Source: Candidatus Levyibacteriota bacterium
Lineage (GTDB): Bacteria; Patescibacteriota; Microgenomatia; Levybacterales; UBA12049
Direction: 5' to 3'
Length of the DNA stretch: 64,000 bases
NCBI GenBank assembly: GCA_963722305.1
Contig: CAVRKE010000001.1
Span: 12,312-76,311, forward strand
Under the pieces are notes generated by a model. The model searched no databases, was not told the DNA's origin, and worked only from the letters and a program-made list of their open reading frames with translations. Of the stretch, positions 18,396 to 57,483 are shown in pieces (the first letter of the stretch is position 1; each line of letters opens with the position of its first letter). The translations under genes and the position numbers were made by a program.

Positions 18396-18433
18396 GGCTT
18401 TAATTTTCAAATAAAAAGTTATAAAATTGTTTA

Positions 18434-19144
18434 ATGAAATTGTCGATAATTATTCCGGTCTATAACGAAGAGAAAACAATCCTGGAAATTTTAGACCGGG
18501 TTATAAAAGAAGCAATCCCCGGAGTAGAAAAAGAAATTATTGTGGTTGACGATGGTTCTACGGATTTAACTCGCCAAAAATTAAAAACAATAAAAGGGGA
18601 TAATTTAAAGATAATTCTACATCAAAAAAACGGCGGGAAGGGGATGGCGGTCAGAACGGGAATTGAAAACGCCAGCGGCGAATACATTATTATTCAGGAT
18701 GCGGATTTGGAATACCATCCGAAATTTATAAAGAACTTAGTCCAGCCGATTCTTCAAAAACAGGCGGAGGTTGTCTACGGCACCAGACTTAACAGGTTAC
18801 CCCACCTTCAGGGGGAAGAAAAGAAAAATTTATTTATTCTTCATTATTTCGGTAACCGGTTTTTAAGTTTGGTAACCAGTCTTTTGTACGGTCAGTGGAT
18901 TACTGACATGGAAACCTGTTATAAGCTTTTTCCCAAAAAAGCTTTCGCAGGAGTAAAGCTTAACGCCAGGGGGTTTGAATTAGAACCGGAAATCACCGCA
19001 AAGCTCTTAAAACGAGGCTATAAAATTAAGGAAATTTCCATATCGGTTACTCCAAGAGGCTATAATGAAGGAAAGAAGCTGAATACCGCCAGAGATGGAC
19101 TAAAAGCGTTATGGTCTTTGGTCAAATACCGCTTCTCGGACTGA
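18434..19144 (+). CDS. GT2 glycosyltransferase, DPM1-like polyprenyl-phosphate sugar synthase type
   Basis: 'LSIIIPVYNEEKTI', 'IIVVDDGSTDLT' and 'IIQDADLEYHP'. Confidence 0.8.
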   Translation: MKLSIIIPVYNEEKTILEILDRVIKEAIPGVEKEIIVVDDGSTDLTRQKLKTIKGDNLKIILHQKNGGKGMAVRTGIENASGEYIIIQDADLEYHPKFIKNLVQPILQKQAEVVYGTRLNRLPHLQGEEKKNLFILHYFGNRFLSLVTSLLYGQWITDMETCYKLFPKKAFAGVKLNARGFELEPEITAKLLKRGYKIKEISISVTPRGYNEGKKLNTARDGLKALWSLVKYRFSD

Positions 19145-28331: not shown

Positions 28332-29293
28332 AAATTTTAGTCACCGGTGGTGCGGGATATATCGGCAGTATAACCGTAAAATTACTGCAGGACAAAGGAC
28401 ATCAGCCGGTTGTATTTGATAATTTAATTTATGGGCATAAGGAAGCAGTTAGTTGTCCGCTGATTGTCGGGGATTTATTGGATAAAGACTTTCTTTTTAA
28501 GAGCTTTGCAGAGGAAAAATTTGATGCCGTAATTCATTTTGCCGCTTACGCTTTGGCCGGAGAGTCAATGGAAAATCCTTATAAGTACTTTTATAACAAT
28601 ATTCAGGGAGGATTGAATCTACTTGATTTGATGAGGCAAAATAACATTCCAGACATAATTTTTTCTTCAACTTGTTCTATTTATGGCACGCCAAAAGTTT
28701 TACCGGTAAGTGAAGATGAAGCGAAGAAACCGGAAAGCGTTTATGGCGAGTCTAAGCTGATGTTTGAAAAAATTCTTGATTGGTACGACACAATTTACAA
28801 AATAAAGCACATAAGCCTTCGCTATTTTAATGCCGCGGGCGCGGCCTTAGATGCAAGTCTAGGAGAGGATCATAATCCCGAGAGCCACATCATCCCGGTG
28901 GCAATAAAAGCGGCAATTAATAATCAGCCGTTTAATCTTTTTGGAGACGATTATTCCACCAAAGACGGCACTTGTATTAGAGATTATATTCATGTCCAGG
29001 ATTTGGCCGAAGTGCACATTCAGGCAATAAATAAGCTAAAGGAGACTAAAACCAGTGACGCCTTCAATCTGGGTACAGGCAATGGTTATTCTAACCTTGA
29101 GGTGTTAGAGATGGTCAAGAAAGTAAGCGGCATAAATCTTCAGATTGTCAAGAAACCAAGAAGAGCAGGGGATCCGCCAATGATTTTTGCCGATAACAAA
29201 AAAGCCAAAAAAGAGTTGGGTTTTAACCCTCAGTACTCAGATCTTGAGACAATTGTCAAAACCGCTTGGCAATGGCACAAAAAACAAAGTTAA
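28328..29293 (+). CDS. galE: UDP-glucose 4-epimerase (NAD-dependent epimerase/dehydratase, GalE-like)
   Basis: 'MKILVTGGAGYIGS' Rossmann motif, 'YGTPKVLPVSEDE' and 'YGESKLMFEKIL' (YxxxK). About 320 aa. The ATG at 28328 overlaps the upstream stop (ATGA). Confidence 0.8.
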   Translation: MKILVTGGAGYIGSITVKLLQDKGHQPVVFDNLIYGHKEAVSCPLIVGDLLDKDFLFKSFAEEKFDAVIHFAAYALAGESMENPYKYFYNNIQGGLNLLDLMRQNNIPDIIFSSTCSIYGTPKVLPVSEDEAKKPESVYGESKLMFEKILDWYDTIYKIKHISLRYFNAAGAALDASLGEDHNPESHIIPVAIKAAINNQPFNLFGDDYSTKDGTCIRDYIHVQDLAEVHIQAINKLKETKTSDAFNLGTGNGYSNLEVLEMVKKVSGINLQIVKKPRRAGDPPMIFADNKKAKKELGFNPQYSDLETIVKTAWQWHKKQS

Positions 29294-30453
29294 AAGTGCA
29301 TAAAGTTATAAAGTTCATAAAGTCAAAATTATTCAAGAGAATTATTTTTGTAATTCTTTTGGCCGTAATTGTTTTTAACGTCGGTTCGACGGTCTGGAAA
29401 CTTAGGTCAACTTATTTTTCATCCAATTATAATGCAAGTTTTTTATCTCTTCAAAAAATTTATTATGATTCCATTTATAAAAACAAACACGGCGGTTTTG
29501 TTCCAGACGAAGTCCTATACTCGTATATTGGCGGGGCTTTAATGAAAGGTAAAAGCCCAATTTTTCTAAATCCTGAAGTTCCACCTTTGGGGACATATAT
29601 TATCGGCTTATCGACAGTTGTTTTTAATAATCAGTATATTGTAATTGTTTTATTTGCAGCCTTGTCATTGTATCTAATATATCTAGTGGGATTACAAATT
29701 TATTCATCGAGATTTCTTGCTTTGATTCCGCCTTTATTGTTTTCCTTTGAACCGATTTTTAAAAATCAATTGGTATACGCTCCTTTGTTAGATATTATCC
29801 AATTAACTTTCTTGCTTTCAATCTTCTATTTTTTCAACAAAGCATTGCACAGTAAGAATAATTTTCTACTTTATATTGTACTAGTAAACATATTTTTCGA
29901 TTGTTTCATTTCCACAAAATTTTTCGGCACAGGAATAACAGTTGCATTTGCTGTTTTATTTCCATTAGCTATTCACAAAGAATGGAGAAGGCTAATGACA
30001 ACTTTAATTACCATGCCAATTGCTGTGATTATACTTTATGCCAATTATCTAAAAGTTCTTATAGACGGTTATCCGTTAAACAAATTTTTGGGAATTCAAA
30101 AATGGATCTTAATTTACAATGAAGGCCATTTAATGAAACCGTTTAGTATTTGGCCTCTTTTGTTATTTAACAAATGGTATCAGTCGTTTGGTAAACAATC
30201 CGTATCCTCCGATCCGCAATGGTTAATTTCGTGGCCATTTATTACAATTATTTCCCTTATTACAATTGTGATTTCTTTTATAAAGAAAATATCTAAAAGA
30301 GAAGTAGAGATAATGTTTTTTTGGATAATTTCATACTTACTACTAATGAGTTTTGTAGATGCCAGTACTCGTTACTTTGTTATTCTTATTCCAATATTGT
30401 ATATGATTGCTTTATACGGGATAATAGAATTTGTAAAGGTGATAAAGAAATGA
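29266..30453 (+). CDS. ArnT/Pmt-like polytopic membrane protein (putative GT-C)
   Basis: 'FVPDEVLYSYIGGALMKGKSPIFLNPEVPPLGTYIIGLS' resembles the ArnT first-loop and 'EKPPL' region. About 10 TM helices. The start is uncertain: ATG 29266 overlaps galE, and GTG 29296 is an alternative. Confidence 0.5.
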   Translation: MAMAQKTKLKVHKVIKFIKSKLFKRIIFVILLAVIVFNVGSTVWKLRSTYFSSNYNASFLSLQKIYYDSIYKNKHGGFVPDEVLYSYIGGALMKGKSPIFLNPEVPPLGTYIIGLSTVVFNNQYIVIVLFAALSLYLIYLVGLQIYSSRFLALIPPLLFSFEPIFKNQLVYAPLLDIIQLTFLLSIFYFFNKALHSKNNFLLYIVLVNIFFDCFISTKFFGTGITVAFAVLFPLAIHKEWRRLMTTLITMPIAVIILYANYLKVLIDGYPLNKFLGIQKWILIYNEGHLMKPFSIWPLLLFNKWYQSFGKQSVSSDPQWLISWPFITIISLITIVISFIKKISKREVEIMFFWIISYLLLMSFVDASTRYFVILIPILYMIALYGIIEFVKVIKK

Positions 30454-31490
30454 AGATTGCGATTGATGTTTCACCGCTTAAGACAGGCCACAGAGTAAGA
30501 GGGGTTGGCTTTTACCTTGAGCATCTTAAAAATGCCTTAGTTAAATATTTTCCGGAGAATGAGTATGTTTTTTTCGAAAGCGGGGAAAAGCTGCCTATGG
30601 ATATTGACTTAATTCATTTCCCCTATTTTGAACCCTTCTTTCTGGCGCTGCCTTTATACAAAAAATTTAAAACCGTAGTCACAGTACACGATTTGACACC
30701 GATAGTTTTTCCCCAGGCCTTTCCACGAGGCATCAAAGGTGAATTAAAATGGCAGATGCAAAGATATGCCCTCCGGCAGGCGGACGCCATCATCACAGAT
30801 TCAGAGTCTTCAAAAAAGGACATTGTTAAATATGTCGGAGCCAATTCTAATAAGATAAACGTCGTCTATCTCGCAGCGGGAGAGCAGTTCCGAAGACTTA
30901 AGACTGAAGACTTAAGACTGAAGACAGAGTACCAACTTCCCGAAAAATTTGTTCTGTACGTCGGAGATGTTACCTGGAATAAAAATCTTCCCAGGTTAAT
31001 GGGAGCGGTTAAGGAGTTGAATATTACATTGGTCATGATTGGAAAAAGCTTGGCTCAGGTGGACTACGACCGAAATAATCCCTGGAATGCCGATTTAAAC
31101 AGGGTTAACGAGCTGGCAAAAGAAAATGAAAAAATTATCAGACTAGGCTTTGTTCCGACGGAGGACTTGGTAGGTATCTATAATTTGGCCAGTGTATTTG
31201 CTATGCCTTCTTTGTATGAGGGATTTGGATTGCCTGTTTTGGAGGCGATGGCCTGTGGTTGTCCCGTTATCACTGCCAAACAAGGTTCACTGTTGGAGGT
31301 CGCCGGTAGCGCCGCCTTTTACGTCGATGCCTATGACGTTACAAGTATTTCCTCCGGCATCCAAAAAGTATTGGGCGATGAAAAATTGCAACAGGAATTA
31401 AGAGAAAAAGGCTTGGAAAACGCAAAAAAATTTTCCTGGAAAAAGACGGCCGGAGACACAGTTAAAGTTTATGAGAGGGTTTTTGGGTAA
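30450..31490 (+). CDS. GT4 glycosyltransferase
   Basis: '[28 protein letters not shown]' (E-x7-E). The ATG at 30450 overlaps the upstream stop. It contains a 14-bp tandem duplication at 30892-30926. Confidence 0.8.
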
Positions 31491-33359: not shown

Positions 33360-34118
33360 ATGATGGGAAAAATAAAATCACTATCTCTTGTTGTACCTGC
33401 CTATAAGCAAGAAAGAACAATTGTAAAAGACCTACAGAACTTGGATAAAGTTTTATCTTCGTTGCCTTATAAACATGAAATAGTGGTGGTGGCGGACGGG
33501 TTTCTTGACAAAACTTACGGAAAAGTTTTATCTCTTAAATCAGAAATCAGAAATCTTAAGGCATATGGTTATAAGGAGAATATAGGAAAAGGTTCGGCGA
33601 TTAAATTTGGAGTGGAAAAAGCAAGCGGAGACGTGATTGGATTTATTGACGCGGGAATGGATATCGACCCATCGGAAATATCCCTAATGCTTGATTTAAT
33701 GGACTGGAATAAGGCGGATATAATTTTGGCCAGCAAGCTTCACCCGGAATCAAAAGTAAATTATCCTTTTTGGAGAAAAGTTCTTTCCTGGGGATACCGG
33801 ATGTTGGCACATGCTTTATTTGGTTTTAATGTTAAGGATACCCAGGTTGGATTTAAAATTTTCCGCAAAAAAGTCGCCAAAGAAGTATTCGCAAGAATTA
33901 TCGTCAAGCGGTTTGCTTTTGACATAGAAGTTTTAACTGTGGCATATAAATTAGGGTACCGGCGGATTTTTGAAGCGCCGGTAAAATTGGATTTTCGGCA
34001 GGCAAGCAGTATTACCTCTACAAATTTTTGGAGAACAATTTTTTGGATGCTGTGGGACACGGCAGCTGTTTTCTATCGTTTGAAAATCTTACATTTTTAT
34101 GATAAGCAAAAGAAATGA
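33360..34118 (+). CDS. GT2 glycosyltransferase (DPM1/DPG-synthase-like)
   Basis: 'LSLVVPAYKQERTI', 'EIVVVADGFLDKT' and 'IGFIDAGMDIDP'. ATG at 33360, with TTG alternatives upstream. It contains (AAATCAG)x2. Confidence 0.7.
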   Translation: MMGKIKSLSLVVPAYKQERTIVKDLQNLDKVLSSLPYKHEIVVVADGFLDKTYGKVLSLKSEIRNLKAYGYKENIGKGSAIKFGVEKASGDVIGFIDAGMDIDPSEISLMLDLMDWNKADIILASKLHPESKVNYPFWRKVLSWGYRMLAHALFGFNVKDTQVGFKIFRKKVAKEVFARIIVKRFAFDIEVLTVAYKLGYRRIFEAPVKLDFRQASSITSTNFWRTIFWMLWDTAAVFYRLKILHFYDKQKK

Positions 34119-35213
34119 ATATTTTAATTCTTAATTGGCGTGACCCCAAAAACCCAAAAAGTGGAGGAGCGGAGATTGTAACATTGGAGCATGCCAGAGC
34201 GTGGGCCAAAGGCGGACACGTAGTGACGTGGTTTACATCGAGATTCAAAAATGCCAAGAAGCAGGAGAATATCGAAGATGGTGTAACCATTGTGCGACGT
34301 GGTAATTTCATCACCGTTTATTTGCTGGCCCCGCTATTTTATTTATTTTCCAAACAAAAATTCGACTTGGTAGTTGATGAAATCCACGGTCTTCCATTCT
34401 TCACGCCGCTTTTTGTCAGAGTTCCTAAAATCGCTTTTATTCATGAAGTGGCCGGAGAGATTTGGGATTACATGTTTCCTTTTCCGGTTAACAAAATTGG
34501 CAAAATTGCAGAGCCTTTATATTTTAGGCTTTACAGAAATGTCAGATTTTGGACCGACGCCAACTCTACTGTTGACGATCTGGTGAATAAAGGGATAAAA
34601 AGAAAGAATTGCGTCGCGATTAATTGCCCAATCAGCCATCCGTCTTTGAATATGCTTCCCAGAAAAGAGAAAACCCCGACTTTTATTTTTGTTTCCAGAG
34701 TGGTCAAAATGAAAGGCATTGAGGAAGTCATCAGGGCCTTTTTCTATATTTTAAGAGAGCTGAAAGACGCCAAGCTTTGGATAGTGGGAGACGGAGACCG
34801 AAGGATATATCCAAGACTTAAGAGAAACGATAAGTACTTACGCCATTAGTTCTAAGGTCAAATTCTTCGGCCGGGTTTCGGAAAAAGAAAAATTTGCATT
34901 ATTAAAAAGAGCCAATCTGCTGCTGCATGGTTCGGTGAAAGAAGGCTGGGGATTGGTGATAATCGAAGCGGCGAGCCAGGGGACTCCGTCGGTGGTTTAT
35001 AATGTGGCTGGTCTTCGCGATTCGGTCAAGAACGGAAAAACGGGAATTGTTTTGAAAGAGAATAATTGTAAAGAAATGGCCAGAGAGGCAATCAATCTTT
35101 ACCAAGACAAAAAAAGATATCAGCTTTTCCAAAAGAATGGGTTGGTTTGGGCGAAAAGCCTAAATTGGAACGACGCGACCAGAAAAAGTTTAGCCCTCAT
35201 TAATTCACTATGA
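34115..35213 (+). pseudogene. GT4 glycosyltransferase interrupted by a single frameshift near 34785-34846
   Basis: The N-domain ORF 34115-34849 ends '..KLWIVGDGD'. The C-domain continues in another frame from about 34785: '..ISSKVKFFGRVSEKEKFALLKRANLLLHGSVKEGWGLVIIEAASQGTPSV' (E-x7-E). The two halves are collinear with an intact GT4. Confidence 0.5.
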
Positions 35214-38612: not shown

Positions 38613-39778
38613 ATGCAAACTGAAATTTTAGTCTCTCCTCTTCAGATAAGCGTTATCAGTGACACCGGCAGTGAGTTCGTTTGGTCAAGCATATTTCGGG
38701 AATCTTTGCGCGATTATTTCAAAAATAAGGGTTTAAAATTTGTCGTTGGCTTTGATGAAGAAAAATCAGCTAAGGATACAACTTCTTATCTAAAAAAGCC
38801 GTTAACGCCTTTATCCATATCTAATAAATCTTATTATAATTTTTCAATATTTTACAACCTTTACAACTGTCTTCAAGTTTTTGGCCGACCAAAGATTTTA
38901 TGGCATTTCCTGCTGTTTTCTTTTGGGCGAACATTTAACTTAGGAATTATTTTCAGATTAGGCCAGAAGTGTGTTATCGGACCCATTCAACCGACCTTAT
39001 CTGTTCAAGATTTAAACCTTTCAAATAAAGCAGATTCAAAAGACTTATTAGTATCATTGGTCTTAATATTTAATCGGTTATTTTTTTACCTTTCAGTATT
39101 AACGCTTAAGAGAGCCGACATAATTTTTGTTGTACCCAAGAACAAAAAAATCAAATGGCTAAATTTGGCGTTGATAAAAACAGAATTAAGACTGTTGGAT
39201 ATGGAACAGTTTTATTAAATAGAAAACCAAGTCGAAATAACGAAAATAAGGTTAAGTTTATTTGCTCGGGGTGGTTTACAAATAGGAAAAATCAGCTGGA
39301 GATAATAGAGGCAGTCAATAATTTGCCTGAAGATATTGTTAATAATATAGAAATAAGCTTCTACGGGGAAGGTCCGTTACTAAAAGATGTTATTCAAAAA
39401 TGTAACCCCAGAATAAAAAAGGCAGTCAGGTTTATGGGGAAAAAACCTCGGGAAGAGGTGTTGGCTGCGCTTTCCGAGTCTGACGTGCTCTTATCGACAA
39501 GCATGTCTGAAGGATATTCTCAGTCGGCATTGGAAGCCGTTGGTGCGGGAGTAGCTTTAGTCTCCACGCCTGTGGGTGGATTTAAGGAAATAATTGCAGA
39601 AGCAAAAAACGGAGTGATTCTAGATTACAGGTCGGAGTCAGTAGAAAAAGTGATAATGGATTTAGTTTTAAATAAAGACCTTCTTACTATTTATAAACAG
39701 AGATCGCGTCGTTTTGCAGCCTCGCATACATGGGAAAAGCAAGTAAAAAAAATGTTGCATTTTATAAATAATGACTAA
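38613..39778 (+). pseudogene. GT4 glycosyltransferase with a frameshift in an A7 run near 39150-39175
   Basis: The N-part (38613-39218) ends '..RADIIFVVPKNKKIK'. The C-part (39155-39778) starts 'AKFGVDKNRIKTVGYG' and carries 'SEGYSQSALEAVGAGVALVSTPVGGFKEII' (GT4 C-domain). The junction lies at 'acaaaaaaatcaaatgg'. Confidence 0.5.
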
Positions 39779-40519: not shown

Positions 40520-43500
40520 AGAAAATCCCAATCATATTTCTCATCGTGATTTCCTTTATATCTAATTTTGCCTGGATAAGCAGCCTGTCGATTCTTACTA
40601 GCGGAGATCGGCTATATCAGCAGCCGGCTACACTAAAAGAATTGGTAAAGTTGACCGTCAATTTGGTTCACCACGTCAATCGGCGGAATAAACATTGCTG
40701 GCTCATTTTATCCTTTTGAGCTGATGTTTGGACTATTGGCTAAGTTAGGTTTTAGTTTTGGGTTGATTGAAAGAGTTGTCTTTATGTGGCCAGTTCTTAT
40801 TGCATTACCAGTATTTAGCTACATACTTATCAAAAAGAATGTTAATAACACACTTGCCGCGGTTATAGGGTCATTGATTTATTCATATAACACTTATTTT
40901 TCCGAAAATGAAAACCGGACAGTTAACGCTATTAATGGCGTATGGTCTTGCGCCCTTAGTTTTCCTGTTTTATCAGAAAGCTTTGGAAAAAAAAGAAATT
41001 AAATATGTTTTGCTGGCGGCAATATTTGGATTTATTGTTAGCTTTTACGAGTTCAACAAACATTTTTACATCTATGCATTGTTTTTATTTCTTTATTTTT
41101 TTTAATTTATTGATGTACTTTTTTGTTGAAACAGAAAAAAACAGTAGGTAAGGTTATAAAAGTTTGTTTAATTGCGGGTGTAACAGTATTGATAGATTTA
41201 TTGCTAAATTTATATTGGTTATTGCCATTAGAGAAGGTAGGAGCATTAAGCACAAACGCAATATTTATAATAGAAGTTTGTTTTGTAATGAGTTTTTGAA
41301 TATCAAATTATGCGATTACACTGTTTCATCCCTTCTGGACGGGGAAGTTTGCCCTCAGCCTTTATTGTTCAGAATATTCCTTCATATTTTTGGTTAATTC
41401 CTATATTCGCATTTTTGGGTTTATATTTGAATCGGAAAAACAAAAATGTCTTATTTTTTGGAATTATTACTTTGCTTGGAATATTTTTGACAAAACAAGT
41501 TGCAATACCTTTTACGGGGGTTTATGGATGGTTATTTGCTCATTTCCCCGGCTTTAACGCATTCAGGGAAGCCAGTAAGTTCTATTTCTTAGTAGTGTTT
41601 GGTTACTCTGTTTTGATTGCAGGTTTTGTAGATTGGGTCTGGAAAAATTGTACTAGAGAGTTACGGATATTGGGAAAATATATTTTAGTATTCGTAATTG
41701 CAGTGATTTTCCTATGGAATGTAAAACCGTTCATCACCGGAGAAATCGGTACACTGTTTGTACCAAGGGAAATTCCGGCGGATTATCTGGTATTAATAAT
41801 TTTATTTTAAAGCAAAACGATTACTTTAGAACTCTTTGGCTTCCGACGAATTCCCGCTGGTTGGTTTACACGAATGATCGTCCCGAAGTAAGTATGGCAG
41901 ATGTTCTTCAGGCCAATTGGCAGGGATATAAGCAATATAGCCAGATTACCGCAAAGGAAATGGTTAATTTTTTGCATTATCAATATGCTAGCGACCTATT
42001 AGATATGTCTTCAATTAAATACGTAATAATTCCTTTGCAAGACAAGATTAACGCTGATGATTTTTTTGTTTATTATGGAGAACCACGGCAATATTACATT
42101 AATGACCTAAATCAGATTAAATATTTGCATAAAATCAATGTCGGCACAAAAAACATTGTCGTTTACAAGAACGAGAATTACAAACCTCTATTATACAACC
42201 AGCAATCAAGAATCAATAAACAAGGAACAAGATTATCAAACTGTAGATTTTAAATTTATCAATCCGACTGTATAAAATCAGATTAACGAATATCTCAAAA
42301 CCCGTTTATCTGAACTTCTCCGAAAGCTATCATCCCGATTGGAAAATAAGAGTTGGGCATTTTAAATGGCTTGACGCTTTGACCAAAAAGAACTATTTCC
42401 TTCCCGATAAATTTCATCTTGAGAATGACGCTGGTTTGAATTCATTCTATATTAATTCAAGCCAATTTTGTGAAGTTGAGAACGGATGCGTTCGAAACAA
42501 AGGTGGTTCTTATGATATCAACCTGACTCTATATTTTATGCCACAAAGCTACTTGTATTTAGGATTAATAATTAGCGGTGGAACTTTAATTATTGTTTTG
42601 GGATACCTATTGTTTATTTTTTCCAGCTGGGCTGGATCTCGTTTCTCTCGAGGTAAACATGTATGAAAGAAAAAATTAAAAAATTTCGGAAAGATAAAAA
42701 ACTGATGAAACACGTAATCGCTATCTTATTACTTTTAGGGCTTTGGGTGTTGTTGACAATTTTATACGTTGTAAATTTTGATACAAGTTTTTCGATATGG
42801 TCGTATAACCATCAGAGTACCGATATTAAAAATCTTAATTATAATTTGATTTATAAAGGCGAAACTTTTAAGGGCGAATTTATGGCACAAGACAATAATT
42901 TAGGGATTGTTTCTTTAAGATTTCAAACATACATTAGACCTCCTTATAGCCTTGAAGACCAATATCTATTTAAGATAAAAGAGTCAGGCGCTAAAAATTG
43001 GTATTACCAGAACACTTACAGAAACGGGTTAATTTATGATGTTCCTCTTTTCCCGTTTGGTTTTCCGCAAATCCCAGATTCCAAAGGAAAGACTTATGAT
43101 TTCGAAATTACAGCTCTTAATACGAATTCCGTTAACGCATTATCTATAAGTACCAGATATCCGGTTCTTCAATCAAAATATAAATATTCCGGGCCTGAGC
43201 TTTTGCATAACAAAAAGGAACTTATCAGCTTTCTAGTTATTAAATTTTCCAATGCTTTTAAAACACCTGACGTAATTTTTACTTCATTTATCTATTTTTT
43301 ACCTTTTCTTTTTTATCTTATTTGGATTTCCTTCTTGAAAAAATCATGCGTCCGGTTACCACTAGAATTGAAGAAACAATAGAAAGGTTAGAGAAAACTT
43401 TTCTTGGGCCATTTATAATTTTGTTAAAAAAATTTATTTATAATTTGGATATATTTCTTATATTCATAGTTTTAGTAGATATTTTAATAATTCAGTTGAC

Positions 43501-46471: not shown

Positions 46472-48017
46472 ATGAAAAAGCTTAAATGGGTTTTATTATT
46501 CCTTATTCTCTTTCTCGCATTTTTGCTTGGGGCAAGAATCATTTTATCCGGTGACTTTTTTTACCTCTACGACCAGGCCAGAGACTACCTGCTAGTCAAA
46601 AATGTTGTCGTTAACCACAGTTTAATCTTAATCGGCAACCGCAGTGGCTTGGGAGGGTTTTTCCATGGGCCAATCTGGATTTACCTGCTTGTTCCGGTAT
46701 ATATCTTAGCCAAAGGCAGTCCTTTTGGCTTGGCTTATTTTTACGTCGGGCTTGAGCTTTTTACAGTTTTTGCGCTTACTTAATCGGTGCAAAACTCTAT
46801 GGCAAAAAAGCAGGATTGTTTATCTCATTGTTGACGGCATTGTCTCCCGCTGTTTGGTCGACGGTCAAAAATACGGTCAGTGCCAACATCAGCCGTTGGT
46901 TTATCTTGGACTGTTTTATTTTCTGGTTCAGTTTTTTCGGGGCGACAAAAAAGCTTTTATTTTCGCGGCTTTTCTGGCGGGTCTGGCTCTCCAATTTGAA
47001 ACAGCTTTTTCTTTAGTGCTATTTCCGACCGTCATCGTGTTTTTTGTTTTAAATAAAATCGCCATCGAAGATTTGAAAATAATCTGCTTAAGTCTTATTT
47101 CTTTCGTCTTAAGTCTTACATCTTTTATCTTGTTCGATCTTCGCCACAGATTTTTAATGACCCACGCCATTATTAGTGCTTTCGGTGGTGGGCAAAAGGG
47201 GAGCGGTTACCTTGGTTTTACGGATAGACTGATAAGCCATCTCAACGGATTAATCGGAGTATATAAAGATCCGGTATTTAGTCAGGATTTATTATCAGTA
47301 TTGTTTTTGGCGGCGATTTTTATCTTTGGCTTAGTGCTAGTTTTAAAAAACAAAAAAGAAAAGTATCGAAAAGAGTTTATCTTTTTGCTATTTTTTCCGG
47401 CTGTTTTCTTTGGATTTACTATGTTTTACCCCTATCCGGTTTGGCCGGAATATGTTTTTGGGTTACTTGTTCCGGTCGCGTTCGCCTTCTACCTGGCAGT
47501 TAGAACTGTTTGGAAAAACTCTTTTGGTAAAGTCTTAATTACTTTATTTTTTCTGATTACTTTTTTTCATGTTTTTGTCTTTCTACAAAATCAGTACTTA
47601 ACAAAATACACCAGACTTAACTCGGCCGGCTCTTATCAAAACCAAAAAGCAGTGGTCGAATGGGTCTATCAAAATGCCGGACGAGACGCTAGTCGAAGCG
47701 GAAACTTTGGCTATTTTGTTTATACTCCGGAAGTTTTTACCCACGGGATGGATTATTTGTTTTATTGGTACGGCAAAAAAAATCCAACGGTGACTTTTGA
47801 GAGCAAAAAGGACGTAACGACCTACTTGATTTTATATCCGCATTTGGCAAACGATAACGGAGCTTATGATTTTTGGAAGAAAAATGTTTTGCATACCCAG
47901 GGGAAAGTGATTTTGACAAAAACATTTTACGGAGGAATAACAGTGCAAAAGCTATCAATTACTGCTTCCGAACCGCCGGTTGACCCGAATTATTATCAAG
48001 GTTTAATTTTTAGATAG
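46472..48017 (+). pseudogene. Family B membrane protein (DxxRD motif) with two frameshifts, near 46760-46785 and 46870-46900
   Basis: ORF 46472-46783 ('YLYDQARDYLLVKNVVVNHSLILIGNRSGLGGFFHGPIWIYL') continues in a second frame ('AYLIGAKLYGKKAGLFISLLTALSP', track ORF 46816-47016). It then continues in a third frame, 46725-48017. All three segments are collinear with the intact paralogs at 25966 and 51562. Confidence 0.5.
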
Positions 48018-51561: not shown

Positions 51562-53124
51562 ATGTCAATAATCGCTAAAAATCTATGGTATTATAGTGAC
51601 AGAATGTTCTCCAAAAGATTTTTGAAATTATTTCTTGTCTTTTTTATTTTAATTAATTTATGTTTCTGTGCTTATCCGGTTTTGCACAATGATGTTGGGT
51701 ATAATACCGATACAGCCAGAGATCTTTTAATACTTCAAGACGTTGTTAGTACCCACAAATTACCTCTCATCGGACCTCACAGCGGCTTGACAGGACTTTT
51801 CCACGGTCCTTTGTGGGTCTACATTAATTTACCCGCTTTTATCTTGGGCAATGGTAATCCTGTTGTAGTCGGTTGGTTTTGGGTGTTTCTGATTGCGTGT
51901 GCAGTATGTTCCACTTACTATGTTGGGAAAAAGTTGTTTAACGATTACGTAGGGCTTTTAAGTGCTTTGGTAGTTACTCTAATGAGCATAAGCTATTCCA
52001 GTGGGCTGCTTAATCCTTTTGGCGCCGTAATATTTTCTCCCTTGTTTTTTTACTTTTTCTATAGATACGTTAAATCAGGAAAGCCTATTTATTTAGTATT
52101 GTCATTTTTTGTCACGGGTATTCTTATCCAGTTTGAAATTGTTTTTGGTGGGCCGATTTTAATTTTGTCCTTACTATTTCTGTTGTTCTTCCTTTTCAAA
52201 AAGAAAAAGCTAAAGCATTTATTTTCTGCATTTATTTTAATTATTCCATTGTCTACGTATATTGTATTTGAGCTAAGACATAACTTTTTGCAACTAAGGT
52301 CCATCATCGCCCAGGCTGGTTCCCACACCGGTGGCGCTAAAATGGCATTTTGGGCATTATTGCAGACACGAGTTGAGGGATTAGCGAATTCACTTTTATC
52401 TATTCCCAATGCTCCTTTTCTTTTGACAATATCCGTAATGTTGTTATTCATTTATATTGGTGTGAAAGCCTATAGGGATAAAAAACTCAAGAATAGGGAA
52501 TTCTATTTGTTATTTTTATATTTTTATCTGGGGTTTTGGCCACTGACGTTCTATCTTAACGGAGAAGTGATGGGCTATCACGTTTTGCCGTTTGTGCCGG
52601 TTGCTTTAATAATCTTATCTTCGAGTTATCTTTTGCTACGCAAGGAAATCCTGGCGGTGATTTTTGGTTTCGTGCTCTTTTTTAATTTCATCGTAGCACA
52701 AAATTCGTTACAGGCTTTTTCGGCAATGACGGGGCAAGGCACCGGCTCATGGAAGTTTATCCACCAGCTTGCCGAGTCGGTATTTAAAAATGCTCCTGCG
52801 CGGTTTGGCTATTTTTCTTTTACAGCCGACGAATTTGGCTATGGACCAAGATATGCGATGATTTTTACGAACAAAGAGTATCCGAAAAACTTAGCGCTAG
52901 CCAATACCAAAAGTTATGTTACTTATGCAATTATGGCGCCGACGGAAAACGGGGCAAACAACAACCGGGAGTGGTGGGTTAAGAATAAGGTAAGAATCGA
53001 CAATGCTCCGGTTAGTGTAAAAAATTACGCTAACGGGTACGAGGTAAACAAATACTCGTTAACCGACCAAGATATAAAAATTCCCTCAGACCCAAATTTA
53101 CTGAACGGGCTTTTCTTTCGCTAA
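51562..53124 (+). CDS. Family B polytopic membrane protein (putative GT-C)
   Basis: 'GYNTDTARDLLILQDVVSTHKLPLIGPHSGLTGLFHGPLWVYI'. AGGAG lies 9 nt upstream of the ATG. Confidence 0.5.
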   Translation: MSIIAKNLWYYSDRMFSKRFLKLFLVFFILINLCFCAYPVLHNDVGYNTDTARDLLILQDVVSTHKLPLIGPHSGLTGLFHGPLWVYINLPAFILGNGNPVVVGWFWVFLIACAVCSTYYVGKKLFNDYVGLLSALVVTLMSISYSSGLLNPFGAVIFSPLFFYFFYRYVKSGKPIYLVLSFFVTGILIQFEIVFGGPILILSLLFLLFFLFKKKKLKHLFSAFILIIPLSTYIVFELRHNFLQLRSIIAQAGSHTGGAKMAFWALLQTRVEGLANSLLSIPNAPFLLTISVMLLFIYIGVKAYRDKKLKNREFYLLFLYFYLGFWPLTFYLNGEVMGYHVLPFVPVALIILSSSYLLLRKEILAVIFGFVLFFNFIVAQNSLQAFSAMTGQGTGSWKFIHQLAESVFKNAPARFGYFSFTADEFGYGPRYAMIFTNKEYPKNLALANTKSYVTYAIMAPTENGANNNREWWVKNKVRIDNAPVSVKNYANGYEVNKYSLTDQDIKIPSDPNLLNGLFFR

Positions 53125-53136
53125 TGAGCACTTAAT

Positions 53137-53166
53137 TTGGCTAAGAGGCTTCAAAAATGGTAAAAT
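53137..53166 (+). promoter_or_regulatory. Candidate sigma70-like promoter (TTGGCT-18-TGgTAAAAT) in the 157-bp gap upstream of the GtrB-like gene
   Basis: TTGGCT 53137-53142, an 18-nt spacer, and TAAAAT 53161-53166 with TG extended -10. Confidence 0.35.
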
Positions 53167-53281
53167 CAGACCAGGGATAAGTTATAAGACATAAGATTTA
53201 AGAGAAAGGATTAAGCACATTTTCAGGATTAAATAATATATCTTTCATAAATCTTAAGTCATAGGTCTTAATTCTCTAAAT

Positions 53282-54214
53282 ATGATTAGCGCAGTAATTC
53301 CGGTTTTTAACGAAGAAGAAAGTCTTAATAAATTTTATTCCGTATTAACACTTGCTCTCTCAAAGCTTGGTGCTTACGAAATTATTTTCGTCGATGACGG
53401 TTCCACCGATTCTTCGTTGACGCTCATGAAAAAACTGGCTGCGAAAGACAAGAAAATCAGAATTTTTTCATTCCGGACAAATCATGGAAAAGCCGAAGGT
53501 TTAACTTTGGGTTTTCAAATGGCTAAAGGCGATTATATCGTCACGTTGGACGCGGATTTACAGGACAGGCCGGAAGAAATAAAAAATCTTCTAAAGAAAC
53601 TTAAAGAAGGCTATGACCTGGTTTCCGGCTGGAGAAAAAACAGGAAAGACGCGTTGAAAACCAAGCTTTCTTCAAAGCTTTTTAACTACGTCATGAATTC
53701 TTTTTGGGGAGTGCATTTGCACGATTACAATTGCGGTTTAAAAATTTATACAAAGCAAGCTGCCAAGAGTCTAAATATGTACGGAGGAATGTATCGTTTT
53801 ATTCCGCTTTTAGCCGCGGAAAAGGGTTTTGAGGTTACGGAAGTACCGGTGGTGCATGAAAAAAGACAATACGGTAAATCGAAATACGGATTTTCAAAAA
53901 TTTTCAGAGATGTCCCGGATATGTTTACGATACTTTTCCTTTCGCGATACGCCAAACGCCCCTTACATTTTTTTGGGTTTATCGGCGGGGTAGCTACATT
54001 GGCTGGCTCAATTATTCTTTTATATCTGTATATTTTGCGGTTGATGGGGCAGAGAGTGGGAACAAGACCGCTTTTGACTTTCGGGATGCTTTTAGTGCTA
54101 GCTGGTTTTCAGGTTTTGTTTACGGGATTCCTGGCGGATTTAATTTTACACATCACACAAAAAGACAAAGATGGCGATTCATACGAAAACGAGTTGAAAT
54201 ATAAAACTAAATGA
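53282..54214 (+). CDS. GtrB/ArnC/DPM1-like polyprenyl-phosphate glycosyltransferase (GT2 with C-terminal TM anchor)
   Basis: 'ISAVIPVFNEEESL', 'IIFVDDGSTDSS', 'TLDADLQDRPEEI' and 'VSGWRKNRKD', plus two C-terminal TM helices ('FFGFIGGVATLAGSIILLYLYIL..LLVLAGFQVLFTGFLADLIL'). This is the classic GtrB/ArnC layout. Confidence 0.85.
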   Translation: MISAVIPVFNEEESLNKFYSVLTLALSKLGAYEIIFVDDGSTDSSLTLMKKLAAKDKKIRIFSFRTNHGKAEGLTLGFQMAKGDYIVTLDADLQDRPEEIKNLLKKLKEGYDLVSGWRKNRKDALKTKLSSKLFNYVMNSFWGVHLHDYNCGLKIYTKQAAKSLNMYGGMYRFIPLLAAEKGFEVTEVPVVHEKRQYGKSKYGFSKIFRDVPDMFTILFLSRYAKRPLHFFGFIGGVATLAGSIILLYLYILRLMGQRVGTRPLLTFGMLLVLAGFQVLFTGFLADLILHITQKDKDGDSYENELKYKTK

Positions 54215-54780
54215 AAATAGGAATTGATATTTCACAATTAGCATATCCTAATACAGGAGTTGCAAATTACCTGCAAAAGCTCGTTAATAACCTCATCGAA
54301 ATGGACAAGAAAAACCAGTACGTGTTATTTTTCTCAAGTTTGAGAAAAACAATTCATAATTCACAATTCATAATTCACAATTCTAACGTCAAAATAAAAA
54401 CTTTTAAGATTCCTCCGACAATTTTGGACATTCTTTGGAACAAGCTGCATATTCTAGCGATTGAAAATTTTATTGGTCCAGTTGATGTGTTTATTACTTC
54501 GGACTGGACAGAACCACCAGTCAAACATGCCAAGAAAGCGACCATTCTTTATGACTTGATTGTTTATAAATATCCGGAAGAAACTCACAATAAAACCAGT
54601 TTTAATCCTCTTAAGTTGATTATTTCACCAAATATTGTCGCTTCACAAAAAAGAAAACTCAACTGGGCGAAAAAAGAATCGGCGATGTTTTTCTGTATTT
54701 CAGAGGCGACTAAAAAAGACGCCGTTCAAATTCTTGGTATCTCTGAAAATAAATTAGCTGTGATAAACGCAGGAATTTGA
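54211..54780 (+). CDS. GT4 N-terminal domain only (truncated glycosyltransferase remnant)
   Basis: 189 aa: 'MKIGIDISQLAYPNTGVANYL' ... 'NKLAVINAGI*'. It stops at the N/C domain boundary. No C-terminal E-x7-E domain follows. It contains (AATTCATAATTCAC)x2. Confidence 0.5.
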   Translation: MKIGIDISQLAYPNTGVANYLQKLVNNLIEMDKKNQYVLFFSSLRKTIHNSQFIIHNSNVKIKTFKIPPTILDILWNKLHILAIENFIGPVDVFITSDWTEPPVKHAKKATILYDLIVYKYPEETHNKTSFNPLKLIISPNIVASQKRKLNWAKKESAMFFCISEATKKDAVQILGISENKLAVINAGI

Positions 54781-54855
54781 ACAAGTTATAAAGTTTGTAA
54801 AGTACGGAGTTCATAAAGTACTTTACAACTTTAAACATTATAACTTTATAAACTT
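54781..54855. repeat. Palindromic intergenic repeat R1 (centre AAAGTACTTT; arms AAGTTATAAAGTT / AACTTTATAAACTT)
   Basis: Read directly from the sequence. It is an imperfect 75-nt inverted repeat ending at the ATG of 54856. It is related to the repeat at 56529-56604. Confidence 0.55.
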
Positions 54856-55971
54856 ATGTTGATTGGCATCGACGGGAACGAAGCAAATGTACAAAAGCGG
54901 GTGGGTATCGGCGAGTATGCATACGAACTGCTGACGCAGTTCGAGAGATTTAAGATTAATGATTTAAGATTTAAGATTTATCTCAAGAATGCCCCGATGG
55001 GGCATATGCCGAAGGAAAGAGAAGGGTGGAAGTACCAGGTATTTGGCCCGAGGAAAATGTGGACCCAATTTGCTTTGCCTCTGAATTTGTTTTTAAGCAG
55101 GCCAAAACCGGTTGTATTTTTTAGTCCCAGCCATTATGCTCCGCGGTTTTCTCCGGTTCCGACCGCGATTTCAATTATGGATTTGTCCTATATCCATTTT
55201 TCCGAGCTTTTTACCAAACACGATTTATATCAATTAATCAATTGGACCAAATACTCCGCAAAAAACGCTCGGAAAATATTCACAATCAGTAATTTTAGTA
55301 GGGATGATATAATCAAAACATACGAGAAAAGACCGGAGGACGTGGTCACGACGTATCTTGGGATAAAGGAGATTAAAGATTCAGGATTAAAGATTAAAGA
55401 TATGGACGAACTAGAAAAAAAGTTCAAGATTACAAAACCTTACATTCTGTTTGTTGGTACTTTGCAGCCCCGAAAAAACATTGTCAGACTAATTGAAGCC
55501 TTCTCCAAAATTAAAGACAAAACAGTCAAATTAATAGTTGTTGGTAAAAAGGGCTGGTTGTGGGAAGAGATTATTCAGGCTCCGGAAAAGTTTGGGGTTT
55601 TAGAAAGAGTCAAGTTTCTGGATTTTGTCAAAGATGAAGACCTCCCGGGGCTTTATAAAAATGCGCTTTGTTTTGTTTTGCCCAGTCTTTATGAAGGTTT
55701 CGGCTTGCCGGTTCTGGAAGCGATGAAATACGGCTGCCCGGTTTTAGTCAGTAATGTCTCCAGTCTTCCCGAAGTTGGAGGAGATGCTGCTGTGTATTTT
55801 AATCCGCAAAACACGGATGAGATTACTCAACAGCTGGATAAAGTTCTGTCCGATGAAGAGCTAAGGAAAGAAATGGTTAAAAAAGGTTATAATCAGGTTA
55901 AGCAGTTTTCTTGGGAAAAAGCGGCGTCCGAAACGCTTCGCGTTTTGGAGGAATTAGGAGGTAAGAAGTAA
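54856..55971 (+). CDS. GT4 glycosyltransferase
   Basis: '[28 protein letters not shown]'. It contains two heptad-periodic repeat tracts (54946-54980 and 55371-55405). Confidence 0.8.
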   Translation: MLIGIDGNEANVQKRVGIGEYAYELLTQFERFKINDLRFKIYLKNAPMGHMPKEREGWKYQVFGPRKMWTQFALPLNLFLSRPKPVVFFSPSHYAPRFSPVPTAISIMDLSYIHFSELFTKHDLYQLINWTKYSAKNARKIFTISNFSRDDIIKTYEKRPEDVVTTYLGIKEIKDSGLKIKDMDELEKKFKITKPYILFVGTLQPRKNIVRLIEAFSKIKDKTVKLIVVGKKGWLWEEIIQAPEKFGVLERVKFLDFVKDEDLPGLYKNALCFVLPSLYEGFGLPVLEAMKYGCPVLVSNVSSLPEVGGDAAVYFNPQNTDEITQQLDKVLSDEELRKEMVKKGYNQVKQFSWEKAASETLRVLEELGGKK

Positions 55972-55976
55972 GAATT

Positions 55977-56528
55977 ATGAATAGAGTCGCCAGGAGGATA
56001 AAAACGGTATTTTGGGAATTAGTCTGTTGGAAATTAGCAGTTACAGGTTATATTCCCTCGCATTATTTAAGAAGATTTGTTTACCGTTTTTGGGGAGTAA
56101 AGATTGGTAGTGGTTCAACCATGCATATGCACGCCTCTTTTTATTATCCGCCGAACGTCACAATTGGTGAAGACACGATAATCGGTGAGAAGGTGGTTTT
56201 AGACGGAAGAGCTAAGCTTGTAATCGGTAACCACGTTGATATCGCCAGCGAAGTGATGATTTATAATTCCGAACATGATCTAAACGACGAAAACTTTAAA
56301 GCCATTTCCGAACCGGTGACAGTTGAGGATTATGTGTTTATCGGGCCAAGAGCAATTATTCTACCCGGGGTCACAATTCACAAAGGCGCGGTGGTTGCCG
56401 CCGGTGCGGTGGTCACCAAAGATGTACCGGAATTTGTGGTTGTCGGGGGAGTACCGGCTAAAGAAATTGCCCAAAGAGAAAATAAAAATCCTAATTATAA
56501 ACTTGGTAGAGCCGCTTGGTTTCGATAA
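55977..56528 (+). CDS. Hexapeptide-repeat (left-handed beta-helix) sugar O-acetyltransferase (WcaF/maltose-acetyltransferase-like)
   Basis: 'IGEDTIIGEKVVLDGRAKLVIGNHVDIASEVMIYN' and 'VFIGPRAIILPGVTIHKGAVVAAGAVVTKDV'. Confidence 0.75.
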   Translation: MNRVARRIKTVFWELVCWKLAVTGYIPSHYLRRFVYRFWGVKIGSGSTMHMHASFYYPPNVTIGEDTIIGEKVVLDGRAKLVIGNHVDIASEVMIYNSEHDLNDENFKAISEPVTVEDYVFIGPRAIILPGVTIHKGAVVAAGAVVTKDVPEFVVVGGVPAKEIAQRENKNPNYKLGRAAWFR

Positions 56529-56604
56529 CGAAGTTCATAAAGTTAAAAGTTCATGAGTGTAATAAAGTACTTTATAGACTTTTGACTTTACAAACTTTTA
56601 ACTT
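56529..56604. repeat. Palindromic intergenic repeat R2 (same family as R1)
   Basis: 'GAAGTTCATAAAGTT...AATAAAGTACTTTAT...ACTTTACAAACTTTTAACTT' ending at the ATG of 56605. It shares GTTCATAAAGT and ATAAAGTACTTTA with R1. Confidence 0.55.
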
Positions 56605-57483
56605 ATGACAGACTTGTCAATAATTATTTTAAATTACAATACCAAAGATTTAACCGTTGAGTGTATAAATTCCATCGTTTCGCAATATAAAGAAGAATTG
56701 GATAAAGGGATTTTTGAAATTATCTTGGTTGATAATGCCTCAAGCGACGGAAGTATCGAAAAACTGGCAAGACTTAAAACACAAATTCCAAATCTAAATT
56801 TAAGCGAAAGCCAAGAAAACTTGGGGTTTTCGAAAGGCTGTAATTTGGGGGCAAATAGCGCAAAAGGGGATTATCTATTATTTTTAAATTCGGACACCGA
56901 AATTAAGGACCAGGGACTAAAAAAAATGGTTGAGTATCTGAAAAAAAATAAAAAAATCGGCATTTTAGGTGCCGCATTGAAAAATGAGGACGGCACCACC
57001 CAGCCCTCAACCGGAAAATTTTATAATCTTATAAATCTTTTTTTAATGTTGTTGGGTTTTGAGCGCTTAGGATTTTTAAGAGACAGTCCGAAAGAAATTA
57101 AAAAAGTCGATTGGGTCAGCGGGGCAGCGCTAATGATAAAGAGGAAAATTTTTAAGATAATCGGGGGATTTGAAAAAGAGCTGTTTATGTACGGAGAAGA
57201 CATGGAGCTTTGTTTTAGGGCCAACAAAAACGGTTTTCCGACTTTTTTCTATCCAGAAATTATTTTATTCCATAAACAAAGAGGCAGCAGTAATCGCACT
57301 TTTGCCATAGTCAATATTTATAAGTCATTGCTCTTTTTTTACAAAAAATATAAACCGGGTTGGCAATACGAAATTGCCAGGTTTCTATTACACTCAAAAT
57401 CTTCTATACTTAACACGGTTGGACTCTTAACCAATAATAAGTACTTAAAAGAAACTTATGGGCAAACTCTGGAACTGTTTTAA
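56605..57483 (+). CDS. GT2 glycosyltransferase
   Basis: 'LSIIILNYNTKDLTVECINSI', 'IILVDNASSDGS', 'LNSDTEI' and 'YGEDMELC'. Confidence 0.8.
   Translation: MTDLSIIILNYNTKDLTVECINSIVSQYKEELDKGIFEIILVDNASSDGSIEKLARLKTQIPNLNLSESQENLGFSKGCNLGANSAKGDYLLFLNSDTEIKDQGLKKMVEYLKKNKKIGILGAALKNEDGTTQPSTGKFYNLINLFLMLLGFERLGFLRDSPKEIKKVDWVSGAALMIKRKIFKIIGGFEKELFMYGEDMELCFRANKNGFPTFFYPEIILFHKQRGSSNRTFAIVNIYKSLLFFYKKYKPGWQYEIARFLLHSKSSILNTVGLLTNNKYLKETYGQTLELF

Follow-up and report, generated by a model that had tools for sequence, protein, structure and literature searches.

The window analysed here, a stretch of 64,000 nucleotides from a contig (CAVRKE010000001.1) of a Candidatus Levyibacteriota bacterium, carries two palindromic repeats, R1 and R2, each of which fills the gap between two consecutive genes. 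The G+C content is about 37% across the window and the gene content consists almost wholly of glycosylation genes on one strand (GT2 and GT4 glycosyltransferases, PMT_2-like, YfhO and Wzy-like proteins, a flippase, galE and methyltransferases). The nearest proteins come from Candidatus Levybacteria and other Patescibacteria. Scanning the window revealed no tRNA gene and no Rfam family: no match reached the gathering threshold, and near R2 only matches at chance level (E 0.14–0.74) were obtained. The genes and repeats around R1 and R2 are as follows.

54211..54780, + strand: stand-alone GT4 N-terminal-domain protein, 189 aa; upstream neighbour of R1, conserved in relatives
54781..54855, + strand: R1, 75-nt imperfect palindrome; left arm 54781–54819 (AAAGT units), right arm 54820–54855 (ACTTT units)
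54856..55971, + strand: GT4 glycosyltransferase; its ATG abuts R1
55977..56528, + strand: hexapeptide-repeat acyltransferase; upstream neighbour of R2
56529..56604, + strand: R2, 76-nt imperfect palindrome; left arm 56529–56568, right arm 56569–56604
56605..57483, + strand: GT2 glycosyltransferase; its ATG abuts R2

R1 occupies the gap from the TGA at 54778–54780 plus 2 nt to the ATG at 54856, and R2 the gap from the TAA at 56526–56528 to the ATG at 56605; both start 2 nt past the stop codon and end at the ATG. Each arm contains four to five AAAGT(T) units, reading ACTTT in the right arm, with a spacing of 7–9 nt around TAAAGTACTTTA. The original prediction, made from the sequence letters, had described R1 and R2 as imperfect palindromes which end at an ATG and are centred on AAAGTACTTT. 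This description was confirmed with lengths of 75 and 76 nt, and all sequences it had quoted were located at the positions it gave. Exact matches to the central 10-mer AAAGTACTTT occur in the window in R1 and R2 only. The two palindromes can be aligned with each other in both orientations with a mean column identity of 75%; R1 represents a subtype with the sequence AAAGTAC-GGAGTTCATAAAGTAC ... ACATTATAAC. Folding as RNA, which had been proposed as a check, gave for both palindromes better energies than for shuffled sequences (R1 −19.0 kcal/mol, z −2.8; R2 −22.2 kcal/mol, z −3.7).

A profile of the repeat family built from 25 members matches the window at R1 (57.6 bits), at R2 (51 bits) and, over half its length, at 29283–29323 (21 bits, E 1e-4), with no other matches. 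Whether the motif is more frequent than expected by chance depends on what is counted. Single units are at background (121 AAAGT and 142 ACTTT in the window), and we rejected a DNA uptake sequence on these counts and on 10-mer matches being at chance. Clustered arrays, however, lie beyond simulation: five AAAGT on the same strand within 45 nt, as found at 29286, arose in 0 of 300 first-order Markov simulations, the simulated maximum being 3 or 4. The 13-mer AAGTTMATAAAGT with at most two mismatches has 17 matches in the window where 10.7 ± 3.1 are expected; R1, R2 and the locus at 29.3 kb account for 8 of them. The repeat signal is thus the clustering of units and not a single motif.

A consensus scan of 52900–57000 found in R1 or R2 neither a sigma-70 promoter (−35/−10 hexamers separated by 16–18 bp) nor a terminator-like G+C-rich stem followed by a T-run, the stems being A/U-rich. 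The idea of promoter or attenuator hairpins was therefore not borne out, and an intrinsic terminator or attenuator is rejected on the same grounds.

Two further sites had been joined with R1 and R2 into one motif family of four.

29286..29328, + strand: direct array of five AAAGT units, within the reading frame 29272 (ATG) to 30453 of a membrane glycosyltransferase-like protein, whose Lys-rich N-terminal tail it encodes
18414..18430, no strand assigned: single AAAGTT upstream of the GT2 gene at 18434; not a member

The relationship of R1 and R2 stands, and the array at 29.3 kb is a real family-like array, yet it is coding sequence. It had been placed (29297–29323) at the junction between galE and the membrane protein gene. 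The orthologues of the protein downstream of galE begin with MAQTKLKVNKVIKFIK..., so the window gene starts at ATG 29272 and the array is coding and not an intergenic junction. It encodes the tail MAQKTKLKVHKVIKFIKSKL, overlaps the last galE codons and the stop codon (29291–29293), has no inverted arm and does not fold (z +1). Related loci and contigs compared with the window carry the labels L001, L002, L003 and so on up to L233. In L230 the array DNA is identical at 34 of 36 positions, although the proteins are merely 65% identical. P0121/L229 was considered as a strain variant with a different N-terminus and rejected: this contig is chimeric (L229 1–332), with high-G+C foreign DNA joined at the end of the array, and is therefore uninformative on the N-terminus. 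The site at 18414–18430 matches neither the 13-mer with two mismatches nor the profile and does not fold, so that it is a chance resemblance.

Distribution, gain and loss of the repeat family

A pattern specifying only the centre and the right arm was used to scan one genome per species (185,579 species). Of the 23 loci found, about 21 also show the left arm, which the pattern left unspecified. The same unit, centre and two-arm architecture is present in about 17 genomes of different classes of the candidate phyla radiation (CPR), and the hosts comprise Saccharibacteria, Levybacteria, Yanofsky-, Doudna-, Magasanik-, Parcu- and Peribacteria together with metagenome-assembled genomes (MAGs) labelled Gammaproteobacteria. 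One of the latter, L022, is nearly identical to the Patescibacteria MAG L017 at the rplB|rpsS junction, which makes the label Gammaproteobacteria doubtful. As judged from these loci, nearly all of the family is confined to CPR/Patescibacteria. The same pattern had 0 matches in 2.9 million viral contigs; a direct-array pattern proved unspecific there, giving at least 120 matches with giant-virus repeats among them, and was discarded. A literature text search with AAAGT-array strings returned no match, and this family of palindromic repeats of about 75 bases is apparently undescribed. It would be the first interspersed repeat family described for CPR/Patescibacteria.

The full elements are 70–90 nt long, have 18–29% G+C and no open reading frame (ORF), and end with (T/G)AGTT...AACT(A/T). 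Units are spaced by 9 nt (63 times), 8 nt (31 times) or 7 nt (12 times), and the spacing is not mirrored between the arms. Some genomes have unit variants of their own, e.g., AAAGTC in both copies of one Magasanikbacteria genome. Two to three copies per piece of 6–64 kb are present in the window, L003, L230, L011 and L024, the second copy lying within a few kb in L230 and L011. We regard it as secure that the family exists, where it occurs and is placed, and that it is conserved.

Comparison of the locus with its relatives bears on how the copies came to be where they are. Relatives that carry the elements and relatives that lack them share one gene order, GT2 – GT4 N-domain protein – GT4 – acetyltransferase – GT2 – Wzy-like – PMT_2 – GT4. 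In L003, the GT4 of which is 77–79% identical, near-identical palindromes are located at both junctions and a third one precedes the first GT2 gene. In L002 (79% identical) and L004 the genes abut or are separated by short unrelated spacers at the junctions of R1 and R2. Among 80 orthologous metagenome loci the genes at the R1 junction abut in most (...YPGI* TAAT ATG); the right arm alone is found in L050, L071 and L076, and other loci have other short tandem repeats ending at the ATG. With gene order conserved and junctions empty, the elements do not delimit a mobile cassette of GT4 plus acetyltransferase. It is correct that R1 and R2 both flank this two-gene module, but the bracketing is incidental as L003 carries three copies, and neither the proposed shuffling of glycosyltransferase cassettes nor presence and absence of the cassette among relatives was found, the module and its neighbours standing in the same order regardless of the elements.

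Further observations concern the same locus. The GT4 N-domain protein of 54211–54780 (about 190 aa, C-terminus ...YPGI) is kept directly before the complete GT4 across Levybacteria, including L002–L004, and ends at the position of the interdomain linker in the full-length GT4. A gene with Fic and HTH_DeoR domains is situated at the R1-equivalent junction in L004/L005 (5019–5996) and before the GT4 gene in L029, L031, L034, L036, L039 and L052. In L084 three copies of GTCTTAN occupy the R1 junction, an array absent from the close relative L086. L001, a public contig corresponding to 54351–56646 of the window, begins inside a heptanucleotide array at 54349 and ends just past R2. From the junctions compared, the R1 junction is an insertion hot spot.

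A second example of a filled and an empty site is provided by miaB|miaA. Here the element is present in L006, L231 and L232, whereas in L233 the two genes overlap by 14 nt, even though L231 is no closer to L006 than L233 is (identity at third positions 0.66 vs 0.71). Such comparisons demonstrate gain or loss of the element. Copies also resemble each other within a genome: copy 1 of L003 is 90% identical to the R2 counterpart of the same genome (R2′), which exceeds the 86% between the orthologues R2 and R2′, and the irregularities of the R1 subtype (AAAGTAC-sGAGTTCwTAAAGTAC ... ACATTATAAC) recur in L230 at a different junction, GT4|flippase. Over the family the mean identity of copies is 0.80 within genomes vs 0.74 between genomes (permutation p 2e-4). 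Of the alternatives put forward in the original prediction, small repeats resembling miniature inverted-repeat transposable elements (MITEs) fared best, given close relatives that have empty sites, a copy that is paralogous and a similarity that is higher within than between genomes. The elements share with MITEs inverted arms, a length of 70–90 nt and a lack of coding capacity, as well as multiple copies per genome and the empty sites of L002, L004 and L233. A 5-nt ATGGA repeat at miaB|miaA is a possible target-site duplication, and none is recognisable at R1 or R2 in comparison with L002; TA flanks about 10 of 24 copies.

Placement before start codons and constraint on the arms

An association with gene starts had been predicted and is borne out without exception: all 26 full copies are followed by an ORF of 60 or more codons, the ATG of which lies 36–54 nt from the centre, i.e., 0–15 nt past the right arm. 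The genes flanking the copies are co-directional, and examples of intercistronic copies are rplB|rpsS, groES|groEL and miaB|miaA. For 14 of the 17 copies located inside operons, the stop codon of the preceding gene lies in the left arm or not more than 5 nt from it, and the ATG follows the right arm. Judged by their first residues the downstream genes are rpsS, rpsC, rpsG, rplJ, groEL, trpS, dnaX, trxB, miaA and genes for GT2 and GT4 glycosyltransferases; on this evidence they do not form a coherent regulon.

At least six copies have an extended −10 box (TGTGGTATAAT or similar) about 7 nt 5′ of the left arm, which would make the element the entire 5′ leader. In L230 a −10 box is found in the centre of an element and in L050 in an element remnant. 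The member in L230 (6083–6178) has its centre replaced by a 29-nt insert with a perfect extended −10 box (TTGTATAAT), so that the right arm alone would be transcribed, as leader of a dTDP-sugar isomerase gene. The operon of R1 and R2 itself starts with the following features.

53137..53166, + strand: sigma-70-like operon promoter, TTGGCT-18-TAAAAT with an upstream TG; conserved in L002, L003 and L004
53177..53271, + strand: leader palindrome of 95 nt with a different unit of about 7 nt (TAAGA/TCTTA), downstream of the promoter and ahead of the GT2 start (53282); fold z −1.3

Across the relatives the promoter reads TTGGCT-17/18-TAnAAT. In L002 the first gene of the operon shows a leaderless geometry (TAGAAT, 7 nt, ATG), and in L003 the promoter is followed by an AAAGT element of 85 nt. 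Shine-Dalgarno cores precede only 8 of 36 starts in the window and 6 of 43 starts in relatives, so initiation independent of the Shine-Dalgarno sequence is normal in these genomes. A leaderless-promoter geometry of the elements themselves (TAnnnT 5–8 nt before the ATG in the terminal unit, inspected by eye) was rejected, as it fits only some 10 of the 26 copies, R1 and R2 not among them. Boxes resembling −10 hexamers are situated 6–9 nt before other starts of the window (12125, 27555, 32805 and 37929) and at 4496 of L002, with the sequences TAGAAT, TATGAT, TGTTATACT and TAGAAT, which suggests leaderless mRNAs. The called start of the L002 GT2 gene at 4639 is apparently wrong, and the ATG at 4496 suits the protein family.

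The elements are much better conserved than the genes around them. Between the window and L003 the copies of R1 are 86–90% and those of R2 83–86% identical (the upper figures ignore end gaps), as against 49–59% at third codon positions and 41–58% at fourfold sites of the four flanking genes. Overall, orthologous copies are 83–98% identical vs 49–66% at third codon positions. The right arm is the more conserved one: it differs at 1 of 43 positions between L017 and L022 and at 1 of 45 between L006 and L231, with third positions 53% and 66% identical, respectively, and summed over four orthologous pairs there are 22 differences in 150 left-arm positions and 11 in 164 right-arm positions. The arms also differ in their spacers. 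CAT is the commonest spacer of the left arms (31 times), whereas its mirror ATG occurs 5 times in right arms (15 copies vs 1, sign test p 5e-4). ATG avoidance in the right arm is the expected outcome of selection against upstream AUGs in a transcribed leader. The aligned copies thus demonstrate that the element has a polarity.

For the RNA structure the picture is different. Native pairs of arms fold with −19.15 kcal/mol vs −20.53 kcal/mol for chimeras (permutation p 0.97), the fold of the sense strand is no better (−19.15 vs −20.41), and RNAalifold on the family alignment gave no consensus pair. According to these comparisons hairpin complementarity beyond the shared units is not selected. 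One stem position of the R1 subtype is variable, the pair changing between G-C, A-U and G.U when the window is compared with L003 and L230.

The window contains other repeats besides this family. Tandem arrays of a heptanucleotide, about 33–35 nt long (four to five units), are located in coding regions at 30892–30925, 33537–33555, 47087–47131, 54349–54383, 54946–54980, 55370–55401 and 61204–61235, the positions including the GT4 interdomain linker, GT4 residues ~31–42 and residues ~47–58 of the GT4 N-domain protein. The TAAGA/TCTTA unit of the leader palindrome recurs in the arrays at 30892 and 47087. Orthologues have arrays at the same protein positions with units differing by genome (AGATTTA, AAATTTC, AAATATC, AAAGTGC, CAATTTA and others). 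This looks like concerted evolution of a periodicity at the DNA level, read in three frames. Phase variation was rejected for these arrays, near-identical pairs of contigs having no difference in copy number. Moreover, several genes are apparently split or frameshifted (34115–35209, 38613–39778 and 41310–42253). The C-terminal half of a GT4 continues in the seemingly intergenic 34850–35209, a further GT4 is divided between overlapping ORFs close to an A7 run at about 39145, and the G+C content falls to 0.32–0.34 at about 36–46 kb. These split genes may be pseudogenes, assembly errors or the result of switching.

Possible origin and role of the elements

Our preferred reading is that R1 and R2 are copy-and-paste palindromes similar to MITEs or repetitive extragenic palindromic sequences (REPs), which would be transcribed together with the downstream gene and be under constraint as its leader for translation initiation; we give this reading a probability of roughly 0.45. 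Non-autonomous elements would insert by copy-and-paste immediately 5′ of a start codon, either in the stop-to-ATG gap inside an operon or between the transcription start and the ATG of a gene which is leaderless in relatives. Placed directly before the ATG the element would be co-transcribed and become the whole leader or the intercistronic spacer. The start-proximal (A)ACUUU arm, being A/U-rich and free of AUG, could work as an initiation region independent of a Shine-Dalgarno sequence, and the distal AAAGUU arm could pair with it to an imperfect A/U-rich hairpin, the base of which juxtaposes stop and start codon. Elements would persist solely immediately 5′ of start codons, with the start-proximal AACUUU arm bearing most of the constraint. 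What we infer here are transcription through the element, any influence it has on translation or on the stability of the mRNA, and its way of spreading; the distal arm might serve for coupling, masking or the protection of ends by way of the imperfect hairpin. Of all parts of this account the mechanism is the least certain.

Several points weigh against the preferred reading. A conserved host factor could instead account for the conservation of the unit across CPR classes. A hairpin directly next to the AUG would be expected to hinder, not to promote, initiation without a Shine-Dalgarno sequence, and the near-invariance of the right arm (one difference each, as given above) exceeds the expectation for a tolerated passenger. 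There was no transposase domain among the 40 window proteins scanned, and we found no gene for a REP-associated tyrosine transposase (RAYT) and no clear target-site duplication, RAYT not having been searched genome-wide. In addition, the census of copies per genome is based on the 6–64 kb pieces.

A bolder proposal, which we consider rather unlikely, is that the AACUUU/AAAGUU arrays are a portable module for Shine-Dalgarno-independent ribosome recruitment or translational coupling. A conserved RNA-binding protein with several domains, for instance ribosomal protein S1, would recognise the units of 8–9 nt, one domain per unit, and the module would spread as a mobile cassette across CPR lineages. 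If this were true, a selfish element would double as the initiation region of essential genes, among them rpsS, rpsC and groEL.

The arrays could instead be operators on duplex DNA. A DNA-binding oligomer of the ribbon-helix-helix or AbrB-like type, proteins which form polymers along short repeats, would bind the AAAGTT units in the manner of MraZ, omega, MetJ or ParG, and the inverted arrays, with the central palindrome as their nucleation point, would stop RNA polymerase at the promoter or past it. The arrangement of a 5–6-bp core as direct and inverted arrays around a perfect 12-bp palindrome fits such a view, as do a recognisable −10 box directly upstream of or within at least eight copies and the genome-specific variants such as AAAGTC in Magasanikbacteria, which would match co-evolution with a factor encoded by the genome. 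A precedent is known from Mycoplasma genitalium, where MraZ binds AAAGTGT-N3 four times (PMC12957436). The irregular and unmirrored spacing, however, differs from the fixed period of known cooperative arrays, most copies sit between cistrons of housekeeping operons, with no promoter there and with downstream genes that have no function in common, the arms are unequally conserved, and the ATG content follows the direction of the downstream gene. Furthermore, the mraZ gene of L026 is preceded by canonical MraZ boxes, unlike the AAAGTC arrays of the same genome. The operator for a dimeric regulator, which had headed the list of candidates, is thus disfavoured, and we think it improbable.

Slightly less probable still is an RNA hairpin evolved by the host, serving as a processing or stability signal (for RNase III or in the manner of a REP) or as a coupling stem melted by the terminating ribosome. 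R1 and R2 do fold better than shuffled sequences, a stop codon in or near the left arm would let the terminating ribosome open the base of the stem, and the varying stem position of the R1 subtype retains pairing. But chimeric arms fold as well as native ones, the sense strand has no advantage, a consensus pair is missing, elements with one arm only occupy the same kind of site, and the patchy presence with empty sites in close relatives is unlike an ancient host signal.

Very little speaks for the view that the repeats are functionless and immobile products of replication slippage in an A+T-rich genome. There are indeed many other tandem arrays of 7–14 nt in linkers and intergenic gaps, with units differing by genome. 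An inverted arm, though, cannot arise by slippage, and the same unit, centre and two arms in about 17 genomes of different CPR classes, with orthologous copies far more conserved than synonymous sites, contradict this origin for R1 and R2; for the unrelated heptanucleotide arrays it is possible. That R1 and R2 are attC-like or MITE-mediated recombination sites moving the GT4 plus acetyltransferase cassette is hardly credible and already contradicted. The two related palindromes do flank a two-gene module, and the R1 junction is a hot spot of insertions and deletions with a Fic-domain gene or other short repeats in other lineages, yet synteny is conserved with and without elements, L003 has its third copy outside the module, the family also resides in ribosomal-protein and chaperone operons, the ends 5′-AAGTT...AACTT-3′ are the reverse of attC cores, and the 40 window proteins scanned include no integrase domain.

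Almost nothing is known about the start of transcription and translation in CPR/Patescibacteria; most genes in the genomes compared have no Shine-Dalgarno sequence, and several genes at the head of operons appear leaderless. An element that is nearly invariant where synonymous sites are saturated would therefore offer a handle on Shine-Dalgarno-independent initiation or coupling. The repeats also have practical consequences: assemblies break at them, with contigs L001 and L229 ending or becoming chimeric there, and gene callers are misled about starts.

Comparison with known systems

Arrays of a short core are also seen in MraZ boxes, omega heptads and MetJ metboxes. The periods of the latter two are fixed, 7 bp for omega and 8 bp for MetJ. 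The MraZ operator consists of three to four direct GTG(G/T) boxes upstream of mraZ, and the MraZ period is 10 bp (PMC12957436). Membership among the MraZ operators was rejected since the core of our arrays is GTT or GTC and not GTG(G/T), the period is an irregular 7–9 bp, the arrays are inverted and they do not lie upstream of mraZ. Boxes of the canonical MraZ type are present in the Magasanikbacteria locus L026 (7880–7960, minus strand), reading AAAGTG ... AAGTGGGG-A-AAGGTGGGG with GTGG at a 10-bp period, and surround a TATATAAT box upstream of mraZ.

The cores of integron attC sites read 5′-RYYYAAC ... GTTRRRY-3′. An attC site was rejected because the ends of our elements have the reversed order, synteny is conserved and an integrase was absent from the scanned proteins. 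In a TIGR array, units of about 36 nt with a box C and a box D flanking two spacers adjoin a tas gene (bioRxiv 10.64898/2026.09.09.750476). TIGR-Tas was likewise rejected, given an 8–9-nt period, no TGATGA/CTGA motif and no Nop-domain protein among the scanned neighbours.

Like the REP/BIME, ERIC, RUP and BOX repeats, our elements are multi-copy intergenic imperfect palindromes, often intercistronic and presumably transcribed, which are alike within a genome. REPs are G+C-rich, 20–40 nt long, species-specific and associated with RAYT, and are typically located 3′ of genes or between convergent genes, whereas the CPR elements are rich in A+T and invariably precede a start codon. We therefore rejected membership in REP/BIME, the elements having 70–90 nt, 18–29% G+C and no GTAG head (with the above limit on the RAYT search). 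The mycobacterial interspersed repetitive units (MIRUs) are direct tandem units of 46–101 bp with small ORFs overlapping the flanking genes. They share with our elements that stop-to-start gaps in operons are filled and that a link to translation of the downstream cistron has been proposed; the CPR element, in contrast, is one palindromic unit and has no bridging ORF.

The right arm recalls the epsilon sequence of T7 gene 10, a translational enhancer which acts as a single 9-mer together with the Shine-Dalgarno sequence. This sequence, TTAACTTTA, is seen in pET primers (PMC9324987). The units of the right arm, (T/A)(T/A)AACTTTA, lie directly before an ATG, and exact TTAACTTTA is found in several copies (L014, L025). 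Unlike epsilon they come in four to five copies, without a Shine-Dalgarno sequence and with a complementary upstream arm, and we take the resemblance as a lead only.

The Correia elements (NEMIS/CREE) of Neisseria occur in this genus only, are 100–155 bp long and have terminal inverted repeats of 26 bp together with a TA duplication; they are co-transcribed, can form hairpins in the mRNA and sometimes supply promoters, features which the CPR elements would share. The CPR elements differ from them in arms made of arrays of 8–9-nt units, in the lack of an evident TA duplication, in their occurrence in several classes and in their distance of 0–15 nt from the ATG. What both have in common is that they are small, palindromic, non-autonomous repeats near gene starts which are present in some strains and absent from others.

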